From sequence record PQ471515.1: DNA of 64,000 bases; one strand, written 5' to 3'. The position numbers and the translations under genes were made by a program. Origin of the DNA: Escherichia phage Turkey3. Below, piece after piece: positions 12,264 through 14,123 of this stretch (positions are counted from its first letter, which is position 1; the number at the start of each line of letters is the position of its first letter). Under the pieces are notes generated by a model. That model was not told where the DNA came from. It saw only the letters and a list, made by a program, of their open reading frames with translations, and did not search any database.

Positions 12264-12893
12264 ATGGGACAAATTTATTAATGGTGATACAATGATCTAT
12301 GTACAATCACAATGACAGTACTGGTACTGACAATCTTCCCCTACTTCACTTGAAAATGTAAAGGATAGATGAGCTTTTCATTGTAGCGAACAGCAAAAGA
12401 AACCCGTTAGATGTGGGCATAGTTTGAACCCCTCACGGCAATGCGGCTGTATAAAGAACCACGTTAGGATAGCTGGTGGTTCCTCGATAGACATATAAGG
12501 ATAACACCTTACGAATTATCTAAGGGAGAGTTATCGAATTTTGTACAGGAAAGTTGCGTCCAAAATTTGAGTACTCACATTAAGTATTTGATTGCATAGA
12601 TACTTAATGAAGATACACTATGTTTAAAAGTGTAGACCGTCATATGAAACTGAAGTAGAGAGAAACAGGATGACCCGCTTTCGCACTCGTTATGAGTAAT
12701 CTTCAATGCAATAGCTCTGATACCATCAGCGTCAAATTTCCCTCCGTGCGGGGGGGGGAAGAAAAATCCCTTCCTCAAATCCCGTCAATATTAAAAGTCC
12801 TTGACAGTTATGATTCATTCGCGTAGAATACGTAGTATTAGAAGCGAACAGACATCTCGAAGAGATGGATGATTAACCACTAAGGAATATCTA
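12264..12893 (+). ncRNA. ~630-bp ORF-poor region, candidate structured non-coding RNA
   Basis: no plus-strand ORF >=60 aa in an otherwise gene-dense context; several stems (GAACCAC-N13-GTGGTTC; TTAAGTAT-N14-ATACTTAA); locally GC-rich run; TTGACA-N17-TAGAAT near the 3' end. Confidence 0.3.
12801..12829 (+). promoter_or_regulatory. sigma70-like promoter TTGACA-N17-TAGAAT
   Basis: read directly, upstream of 12894. Confidence 0.45.
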
Positions 12894-13103
12894 ATGAATT
12901 CAGTAATCTTTTTAATTATTGCTCTTTCACCACAATCTGGTGTACAAATCACCCCAATGAATTCAATGAATCAATGCATTGCAGTACGTGACAGTACGTA
13001 TGAACAAGTAAACAGCGTTTCACTTAGAACAGTTGGTGAAGAATTAATGTGGTGTTACAATAGTAATACTAAAGAAAAACTAATTGTTGGACAAACAGAA
13101 TGA
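12894..13103 (+). CDS. hypothetical small protein
   Basis: 69-aa ORF. Confidence 0.4.
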   Translation: MNSVIFLIIALSPQSGVQITPMNSMNQCIAVRDSTYEQVNSVSLRTVGEELMWCYNSNTKEKLIVGQTE

Positions 13104-13327
13104 GTTATGGTGTTCGTTTTGAGATTCGTTCTATTGTTATCAATGACGAGAAACAAGCATCGTTGGATGACGATATACGAGAACTATATCTATCATGTAT
13201 CCGTGCAAAATCTGAAGCAGATGCATTATCACAAATGATTGGTTTTAATTTCTTTCATGGATACTATTTGGTACGAGTTATCGAAGTTAAAAAAGTCACT
13301 TTTGAGTGTCTTGCTGGAGAAATATAA
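13100..13327 (+). CDS. hypothetical small protein
   Basis: 75-aa ORF. Confidence 0.4.
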   Translation: MSYGVRFEIRSIVINDEKQASLDDDIRELYLSCIRAKSEADALSQMIGFNFFHGYYLVRVIEVKKVTFECLAGEI

Positions 13328-13328
13328 A

Positions 13329-14123
13329 ATGAGCACTATAGATGAATTGATTCGCCGGAATTCAAAATACTACGAACCATCAGAAATTGTCGGCAACATT
13401 ACTAAATCTGAGTTCGGACCAAATACTCGAAAACTCATTCATGTAATGTCACGTGATGGCTTTAAATGTGATTGTTGTGGTGAATCCAATGTGGTATTCA
13501 CTTTACATAAGCACAGTACTAAAGACCGTTATAAATTCAGACCTTATGTACTTAAAGGGAAACGCCTTGTACGCATGACGTTAGACCATAATGTACTAGA
13601 CTGTCTTCAGGGCGGTAATGATAAAGAGAACATGACTGCATTGTGTGAGGATTGTAACGCATTACGCCAGCATAAGTTTGCTGAGTACAGTGAGTTTAAG
13701 TACTGGTATCATAACGCAGATCGTTCCATCGAGCCTGACGTTAACTACTGCTTCATTGAGTACATTAAGAATGCAAAAGATACATACATTCTAAAATCAA
13801 TGTCACCTATTACAGTGTTCCCTGAGAATCTATTCAGTACTATGCAGCGTGATTTTAAACGTGGTATCATTAATGCATTCAAACACTTAGACAAAGGTAT
13901 CAAGCACTTTGAGGTGCAATGCTTAAATGAAGGAATGAATCGTTTAGTACAAATTTACATGAAATCATTTATAGGTGTTGACACCGCACGTCTACCAGTA
14001 TATAATTACTTTATTGAAAGCGAAGAAGGTGAATCACTTCGTGATTATGGTGAAAGATTTAATAATAAAGTTTTCACTGCAATCGCAAACGAGATTCATT
14101 ACTATAAACCATATGTAATTTAA
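13329..14123 (+). CDS. HNH-family endonuclease (free-standing homing-endonuclease-like)
   Basis: CDCCG ... LDHNVLDCLQGGNDKENMTALCEDCNALRQH resembles the HNH motif (Cys pairs flanking DH...N); start placed at MSTIDEL after GGAG. Confidence 0.6.
   Translation: MSTIDELIRRNSKYYEPSEIVGNITKSEFGPNTRKLIHVMSRDGFKCDCCGESNVVFTLHKHSTKDRYKFRPYVLKGKRLVRMTLDHNVLDCLQGGNDKENMTALCEDCNALRQHKFAEYSEFKYWYHNADRSIEPDVNYCFIEYIKNAKDTYILKSMSPITVFPENLFSTMQRDFKRGIINAFKHLDKGIKHFEVQCLNEGMNRLVQIYMKSFIGVDTARLPVYNYFIESEEGESLRDYGERFNNKVFTAIANEIHYYKPYVI

Follow-up and report, generated by a model that had tools for sequence, protein, structure and literature searches.

Here, we report that a noncoding region of Escherichia phage Turkey3 holds a member of a family of large structured RNAs that is absent from Rfam. 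In the window, i.e., the whole 64,000-nt stretch analyzed (PQ471515.1), the element lies on the plus strand at ~12300–12795; it folds into 15 helices, two of which are pseudoknots, and it is not linked to the HNH endonuclease gene found downstream. Our favored reading, which we hold with slightly better than even confidence, is that the element is an independently transcribed noncoding RNA (ncRNA) gene of ~0.5 kb, one of four paralogs, whose product acts in trans as a folded scaffold or decoy. The RNA is apparently a member of an undescribed class of large structured RNAs, and the observation holds up and is of greater interest than the initial annotation, made from the letters of the window, had supposed.

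Region 12230–12900 is 99.4% identical to Escherichia phage fEgEco12 and ~90% identical to 121Q, PBECO4, and phAPEC6, all of which are Rak2-like jumbo myoviruses of 350–385 kb (Asteriusvirus); judged by this similarity, the source of the window is an Asteriusvirus-like (Rak2-like) jumbo coliphage with fEgEco12 as its closest relative. The fEgEco12 genome contains exactly four copies of the element, at 307.1 kb (copy A, the one in the window), 59.9 kb (copy B), 110.7 kb (copy C), and 195.8 kb (copy D). The four are ~70% alike, with invariant blocks alternating with variable stems. The window itself has copy A only according to nhmmer, and a repeat search shows only terminator repeats.

The region had been singled out as the longest plus-strand stretch of the first 39 kb without an open reading frame (ORF) of at least 60 amino acids, with perfect stems and a GC-rich run unusual for this genome, and all three points were borne out. 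The plus strand is free of such ORFs over 665 nt (12229–12893), which is the longest gap in the first 39 kb; the runner-up (5287–5940) is covered by a minus-strand ORF of 385 amino acids. When both strands are counted, 12229–12574 is the longest ORF-free stretch in the whole window. Both stems, GAACCAC/GTGGTTC at 12456/12476 and TTAAGTAT/ATACTTAA at 12580/12600, are present and perfect, and CCGTGCGGGGGGGGGAAG at 12744 contains a run of nine G (12750), the sole G or C run of at least seven in 64 kb.

Conserved fold of the RNA

RNAalifold, with 21 diverse copies as input, predicted 62 pairs including long-range helices, 30 of which show compensatory change. From pairwise covariation computed on 61 non-redundant sequences we derived a curated model of 95 pairs in the 15 helices. 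Pairs were counted on a MAFFT alignment, and the controls were pairing partners slid by 1–3 columns as well as 500 shuffles. Standard pairs fill 94.8% of the cells in the curated model versus 39–46% with slid partners, and pairs changed on both sides number 58 out of 95 versus 13–17. On four of five measures none of the 500 shuffles attained the observed value; on the fifth, a single shuffle did. Compensatory pairs beyond the alignment controls are the mark of a conserved structured RNA in general, and the suggestion that the region might be a structured ncRNA is strongly supported by the covariation behind the 15 helices, the two pseudoknots included. The window copy folded alone is mildly unusual (z = −2.3 versus shuffles); since a single-sequence fold is barely better than shuffles, the structural evidence is comparative. 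G:U pairs are frequent in P12 and P16, and such pairs would be A:C on the opposite strand, which fixes the plus strand. The features of the RNA gene in the window are as follows.

12266–12293, plus strand: promoter-like site of the RNA gene, GGGACA-16-TACAAT, with a TG extended −10 (TG-n-TACAAT, 12285–12293)
~12300–12795, plus strand: structured-RNA gene, copy A of four paralogs; both ends predicted; supported by homologs, covariation, and the G:U strand signal
12341–12368, plus strand: P1 hairpin with the conserved loop GAAAAYGUA; 6/8 pairs compensatory
12390–12450, plus strand: P3 (12390–94:12446–50) around P4 (12404–11:12433–38), with a variable apical insert; 100% of cells paired, compensatory 3/5 and 2/6
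12456–12482, plus strand: P5 hairpin (the GAACCAC...GTGGTTC stem); 7/7 pairs compensatory
12528–12576, plus strand: P7/P7a arm with the conserved 17-nt loop UACARGAWAGWUSCGUC; from alignments
12580–12607, plus strand: P8 hairpin (the TTAAGTAT...ATACTTAA stem); 8/8 pairs compensatory
12591–12597 with 12706–12712, plus strand: pseudoknot PK1, from the P8 loop; 99.3% paired, compensatory 5/7; the P8/PK1 pairs are the top covarying ones in the 61 sequences
12639–12712, plus strand: 3′ core (PK2, P11, P12, P13, and the 3′ strand of PK1)
12639–43:12670–74, plus strand: pseudoknot PK2, inside the P12 loop; 100% paired, compensatory 3/5
12651–55:12701–05, plus strand: P11; 100% paired, compensatory 4/5
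12658–62:12678–82, plus strand: P12; 100% paired, compensatory 2/5
12685–88:12694–97, plus strand: P13; 92.9% paired, compensatory 4/4
12738–12788, plus strand: G-rich hairpin P16 (12738–45:12753–60) and the conserved 3′ tail CAAAUCYCGUCA; kept in all copies

Pairing in P7/P7a is weaker because of indels, and the changes in P16 are one-sided only (U:G/C:G). The hairpin module at 12534–12570 (AAUUUUG-UACAAUAUAGAUCCGUC-CAAAAUU) belongs to the P7 arm in A-, B-, and D-type copies and to the P13 loop in C types, and the copies found on bacterial islands (described below) carry it twice, at both sites (alignment columns 272–308 and 437–472). Attachment of one module to different helices is a peripheral-domain swap, which is typical of large tertiary-folded RNAs. 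The PK1 strands of the four paralogs of one genome are ATTGCAT/ATGCAAT, TCATAT/ATATGA, ATCGAAT/ATTCGAT, and ATTGTAT/ATACAAT, i.e., mutually different and each self-matching, and these differences would be compatible with intramolecular pairing or with paralog-specific pairing between molecules. Between the CAUCGUCAG motif and the G-rich hairpin (alignment columns 520–550), C- and D-type copies have an additional hairpin, which covaries and precedes a U-run; A- and B-type copies lack it, and in island copies the U-run is weak. This extra hairpin with its U-run looks like an intrinsic terminator and may be either terminating or structural. A duplex of the 5′ leader with the 3′ tail was rejected, as no consistent one was found and the closing helix proposed by RNAalifold clashes with P1.

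A perfect TGnTATAAT stands upstream of most homologs, 40–66 nt before P1 in phage copies and 8–9 nt before it in island copies, and the phage copies show a conserved ACAAYYCUG leader and a variable P0 hairpin between promoter and P1. The RNA of the window probably starts near 12300. Copy D has no same-strand gene downstream. Because of the promoters, the strand asymmetry of the G:U pairs, the invariant unpaired nucleotides, and the copies lacking a downstream gene, we infer that the element is transcribed and acts as a folded RNA, and the transcript ends and the action in trans are likewise predictions. The product would act as a folded RNA, neither as a protein nor as a duplex-DNA site. The longest ORFs within the element are 26–98 amino acids, on either strand and at positions varying between copies; indels interrupt the conserved blocks, and there is no ORF conserved across the copies. 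In GenBank the RNA loci are either left empty or bear short “hypothetical protein” calls or a “repeat_region” feature with no explanation; for example, PV611058.1, OR699181.1, PP886230.1, and other records have three to five short “hypothetical protein” genes across them. With no conservation of the ORFs from copy to copy, these calls are almost certainly spurious. It matters in practice, as the RNA genes are unannotated or overwritten by spurious calls in the records of phages considered for therapy.

No Rfam 15 family matched the element when the whole window was searched at the gathering threshold, and with E up to 10 nothing in 12200–13000 was even weakly consistent. On 17 homologous phage loci (E up to 5) and eight bacterial loci, the only Rfam matches were terminators and unrelated flanking RNAs. 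The lack of an Rfam match had been put forward, together with the lack of a transcript, as a ground for giving up the structured RNA; no match was obtained, yet the structured RNA is not refuted, since the negative search means that the family is absent from Rfam and does not speak against the structure. ARAGORN detected no tRNA or tmRNA gene in 64 kb, and neither did Rfam. The models of ROOL, GOLLD, OLE, and raiA gave no match in the window, the phage loci, or the bacterial loci, and the likeness to these RNAs is one of kind only. In the literature we found no description of the RNA, and the genome papers of CBB and Sharanji are silent on it. A role as a CsrA sponge was rejected, as other copies do not keep the AGGA motifs seen in the window copy.

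Distribution in jumbo phages and bacterial islands

BLASTN of the core gave matches of ~70% identity in noncoding DNA of distant genera, namely Mimasvirus (CBB, GAP32, XbC2), Eneladusvirus (BF, Yen9-04, pEa_SNUABM), and the Munch/7t3 group. Matches in Alcyoneusvirus (RaK2, K64-1) are partial only; the K64-1 copy fits the family profile in its 3′ half, with the 5′ half strongly diverged. Each of the 71 Rak2-like records in the phage collection contains the family, with two to five places per record (BLASTN), and no member was found in the other phage records of the collection or in the plasmid records. Altogether, the family has more than 60 non-redundant members (the 61 used in the covariation analysis). 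Paralog positions are syntenic across genera, e.g., copy D adjoins endonuclease VII, antisense to its neighbors, in fEgEco12, CBB, GAP32, and BF, and the paralog types form separate clades in the tree, indicating that the copies are ancient paralogs and not recent transpositions. An exact-pattern scan with a degenerate 26-nt core motif returned 36 loci in IMG/VR and 53 in metagenomes, many on contigs of ~350 kb, with the full-length element at every bacterial locus and most others. Clustering of the flanking ORFs over all loci revealed no protein that accompanies the RNA everywhere.

The same motif scan found eight loci in bacterial genomes (Serratia fonticola, another Serratia, Silvania, Enterobacter chinensis, Buttiauxella, and other Enterobacteriaceae). 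At most of them the RNA is on an integrative element, directly 3′ of the integrase gene and convergent with a CI-like S24 repressor and a Cro-like gene. The integrase is of the tyrosine or the large serine type, thus it is the position that is conserved, not the partner. The island RNAs have their own TGgTATAAT promoter and no co-oriented downstream gene. In Enterobacterales, the island backbone consists of the integrase, unknown ORFs, the RNA, the CI-like repressor, the Cro-like gene, an unknown protein of 286 amino acids, an LprI-like gene, and a resolvase. One island carries Kiwa (KwaA/KwaB). The E. coli island, which is present in 2 of 5426 complete genomes, is ~10 kb long, lies beside ffs (between ffs and ybaA in strain LR-29-1), and has as cargo a candidate defense gene, PDC-M45A, with DUF488 and DUF4326.

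In the tree, the island RNAs form one clade nested among the jumbo-phage copies. Two island backbone proteins had no match in phages by tblastn. No capsid, replication, or packaging genes were recognized on the islands, for which reason they may be satellites or defense islands tuned to Rak2-like jumbo phages. Pseudomonas islands that carry defense genes have been reported to be transduced by a jumbo phage, with no RNA implicated (PMC12595487). The restricted distribution of the RNA, i.e., Rak2-like jumbo phages and rare anti-phage islands of the same hosts, gives a lead on how small islands might exploit or sense jumbo phages.

Candidate roles and the neighboring HNH gene

We picture the product as a compact core of ~15 helices that would be locked by the two pseudoknots, presenting invariant single-stranded segments together with paralog-specific peripheral hairpins. 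During infection, such an RNA, perhaps oligomeric, could act in trans as a scaffold or decoy for a factor of the phage or the host, and the islands of the same host range, which carry one copy, presumably would exploit or block the same step. The scaffold or decoy role is a guess made by analogy with other large, ornate RNAs of phages.

Several points weigh against this proposal. The scaffold or decoy is argued from analogy only. Transcription is deduced from promoter-like sites, and the transcript ends are predicted. RNA-seq of PA5oct, a distant Rak2-like relative, yielded “putative lncRNA” ncRNA001–004, two of them highly expressed (PMC7318152); ncRNA001 and ncRNA002 were considered as expressed homologs and rejected, as they have no nhmmer similarity to the element. 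The terminator-like hairpin of C- and D-type copies stands upstream of the conserved 3′ hairpin and tail, and efficient termination there would exclude the 3′ module from the transcript, which is hard to square with the conservation of that module at the RNA level. The sequences behind the covariation (21 aligned, 61 non-redundant) come from related phages, hence some of the counted covariation stems from common descent, not from independent events. Finally, the RNA element is the sole item we found in common between the islands and the phages. This is expected of a cis-acting site used by phage machinery, and thus favors an origin-type explanation.

We also considered, tentatively and as a distinctly minority view, that the RNA is a “handle” common to Rak2-like phages and minimalist defense-carrying satellite islands, either in RNA-primed replication or as an element recognized by phage machinery, or else that it represents a new class of large ribozyme. 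As a handle, the RNA may be used by the phage at four or five sites, and the islands may have copied it for their own amplification or mobilization. Either a handle element or a new ribozyme, if true, would add a previously undescribed type of element.

The main rival to a trans-acting scaffold is an RNA-primed origin, or some other cis element of the phage machinery, and it fits the structural conservation less well. A replication or packaging site was also among the initial suggestions for the region, and of the two a replication-related role is kept here as a candidate. As an origin, which we regard as possible and rather unlikely, each copy would consist of a promoter and a structured pre-primer whose G-rich 3′ part seeds an R-loop, giving several origins per 350-kb genome, and an island would carry one copy so that the jumbo phage replisome copies the island in satellite style. 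The four or five dispersed copies per genome, each with its own promoter, are what this predicts, as is a conserved G6–G9 run near the 3′ end with AT-rich DNA after it (no other such run exists in the 64 kb); the C/D terminator-like hairpin just upstream could set the primer end. The islands, with no recognizable replication or packaging genes, share with the phages nothing we found besides the RNA, the two tested backbone proteins being unmatched, and the mobilization of defense islands by a jumbo phage has a precedent (PMC12595487). However, the invariant loops, the two covarying pseudoknots, and the swapped modules exceed the needs of known primer transcripts, and neither iterons nor a conserved antisense regulator could be seen. 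The idea also leans on the link between islands and satellites, which is itself putative, and origin activity is predicted here from circumstantial features.

A new ribozyme is less probable still, and we consider it unlikely. Its pseudoknotted core would, for example, cleave or process the RNA itself at the recurring UCGUCAG motifs, or catalyze a reaction on another RNA. The size, the two pseudoknots, the invariant unpaired nucleotides, and the swapping of modules are typical of large ribozymes, and two ...AUC(A/U)CGUCA(G/A) motifs flank the 3′ hairpins. On the other hand, no Rfam ribozyme family matched even at permissive thresholds, and catalysis is putative; a hammerhead-like AGAUGAG...CGAA string was examined and rejected, since it is not conserved where it is needed.

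The remaining explanations depend on the genes around the element, which are the following.

11263–12228, plus strand: sigma-70-family factor gene (Pfam Sigma70_r2 and Sigma70_r3; annotated as RNA polymerase sigma factor g519 in fEgEco12)
12233–12258, plus strand: intrinsic terminator of the sigma gene, an 11-bp stem and then a T-run
12801–12829, plus strand: strong promoter of the small ORFs and the HNH gene, TTGACA-17-TAGAAT, with 11/12 consensus matches
12894–13327, plus strand: two small ORFs of 69 and 75 amino acids (PHROG 37707, E = 5.5e-26, and PHROG 28392, E = 4.9e-43; g520 and g521 in fEgEco12)
13329–14123, plus strand: free-standing HNH endonuclease gene, outside the RNA element (PHROG 35175, E = 2e-148)

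Some side observations concern the sigma-factor gene. Its terminator (AAAGGGTTGACTTCGGTCAGCCCTTT) recurs in near-identical copies at 20712, 24300, 25087, 26664, 27348, 31645, 32368, 33752, and 36512; this repeated sequence, at no fewer than ten sites in the window, looks like a stereotyped early-gene terminator cassette, and a BLAST query containing it returns extra places because of the repeats. In K64-1 (Alcyoneusvirus) an RNA copy lies directly 3′ of a sigma factor gene, as in the window (11263–12795). The ORF at 10743–11240, just 5′ of the sigma gene, is the counterpart of fEgEco12 g518, annotated as “ATP-dependent protease subunit HslV”; an HslV-type protease subunit is unusual for a phage.

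Regulation of the small ORFs and the HNH gene in cis by a long structured 5′ leader, in the manner of a riboswitch or attenuator, would agree with the position of copy A upstream of the operon in the same orientation, and with the lack of a strong terminator after the RNA in A- and B-type copies. We consider it very unlikely, since a consensus promoter separates the operon from the RNA, co-oriented genes are missing downstream of copy D and of the island copies, and the downstream genes differ from paralog to paralog.

The initial annotation had an HNH endonuclease gene following the ORF-free region. The identity of the gene stands: the 264-residue product of ORF 13329–14123 matches, besides PHROG 35175 “HNH endonuclease” itself, 13 further HNH PHROGs, and its translation shows the CxCC...DHN...N...CxxCN...H motif, i.e., family and motif agree, even though the ORF has no Pfam match at E < 0.01. 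The gene does not follow the noncoding stretch directly, as the promoter at 12801–12829 and the two small ORFs intervene. This HNH gene occurs ~0.5 kb 3′ of copy A only in Asteriusvirus. Among the Escherichia Rak2-like records, 27 of 32 have a match to the gene, most at the same locus and with 78–100% identity, and in phage A4 it is truncated; this distribution fits occasional loss more closely than active homing. Other genera have HNH homologs (26–40% identity) 6–10 kb from copy A. We also considered a conserved pair of RNA and HNH gene, on account of an ORF of ~265 amino acids that follows copy A in CBB, GAP32, BF, Yen9-04, and XbC2, and rejected it: the ORF is unrelated (BLASTP E = 0.025, different PHROG). 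The HNH gene is an ordinary free-standing endonuclease gene and a bystander to the RNA.

It had also been proposed that the region is an intron remnant, or an ORF-less intron-like mobile element, tied to the homing endonuclease; to this we add an IscB/HEARO-type RNA that would guide the HNH protein. Besides the HNH gene found ~0.5 kb downstream of copy A, fEgEco12 has another one, g253, ~0.9 kb upstream of copy C, but copies B and D have no HNH neighbor, the homologs in other genera lie several kilobases away, and the gene has its own promoter with two ORFs between. The Intron_gpI model had no match in the window copy (E up to 10) nor in the 17 phage loci (E up to 5), the Intron_gpII and group-II-D1D4 models had none, and no reverse transcriptase or maturase ORF is nearby. 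The element interrupts no gene, as a group I intron would; it is intergenic, with the stop codon and terminator of the sigma gene on one side and a promoter on the other, and it has its own promoter. HEARO (RF02033) had no match in the window copy or the phage loci, and the adjacent gene does not combine RuvC with HNH, its 264-amino-acid HNH product having no Pfam RuvC domain. There are three further copies elsewhere in the same genome, copy D being antisense to its neighbors, and the syntenic paralog positions across genera mean that the element has not been recently mobile. These results already contradict the proposal, and we regard any such intron or guide-RNA origin as extremely unlikely.

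Comparison with known systems

The ncRNA001–004 of PA5oct resemble the Turkey3 RNA in being unannotated noncoding RNAs of a jumbo phage, and differ in sequence, as noted above for ncRNA001 and ncRNA002. HEARO, the omega RNA of IscB, resembles it in being a large structured RNA beside an HNH-domain gene, which here applies to one locus; in contrast to HEARO, RF02033 does not match, the HNH protein is devoid of RuvC, and most copies of the RNA are without an HNH neighbor. The pRNA of phi29 is likewise a structural RNA encoded by a phage, and PK1 could in principle pair between molecules, each paralog having its matching PK1 strands. However, there is no homology to pRNA, the Turkey3 RNA is three times larger, and the phage is T4-like; we know of no RNA-dependent packaging motor in T4-like phages.

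ColE1 RNA II and T4 oriF/oriG are RNA-primed origins that work via R-loops. Similar to them, the element is a noncoding unit of ~0.5 kb with its own promoter, a structured transcript, and a G-rich part near the 3′ end, and like oriF/oriG it occurs in several copies in a large T4-like genome. It has no homology to these origins, no antisense partner of the RNA I type was seen, and it is far more conserved and more pseudoknotted.

The closest in kind are the ornate RNAs ROOL and GOLLD, which are large, come from phages and prophages, are Rfam families, and have been studied by cryo-EM (PMC12286853). The Turkey3 RNA differs from them in that it has no sequence or covariance-model similarity, is found in jumbo myoviruses of Enterobacterales, has several ancient paralogs per genome, and is without a tRNA neighborhood. 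Like them, it is an ncRNA of at least 0.5 kb that is encoded by phages and mobile elements, contains numerous covarying helices as well as pseudoknots, and lacks a constant protein partner. Large bacterial and phage RNAs with intricate folds seldom come to light as new classes, and earlier ones opened new biology: HEARO later became the guide RNA of IscB, and ROOL and GOLLD proved to form RNA cages.

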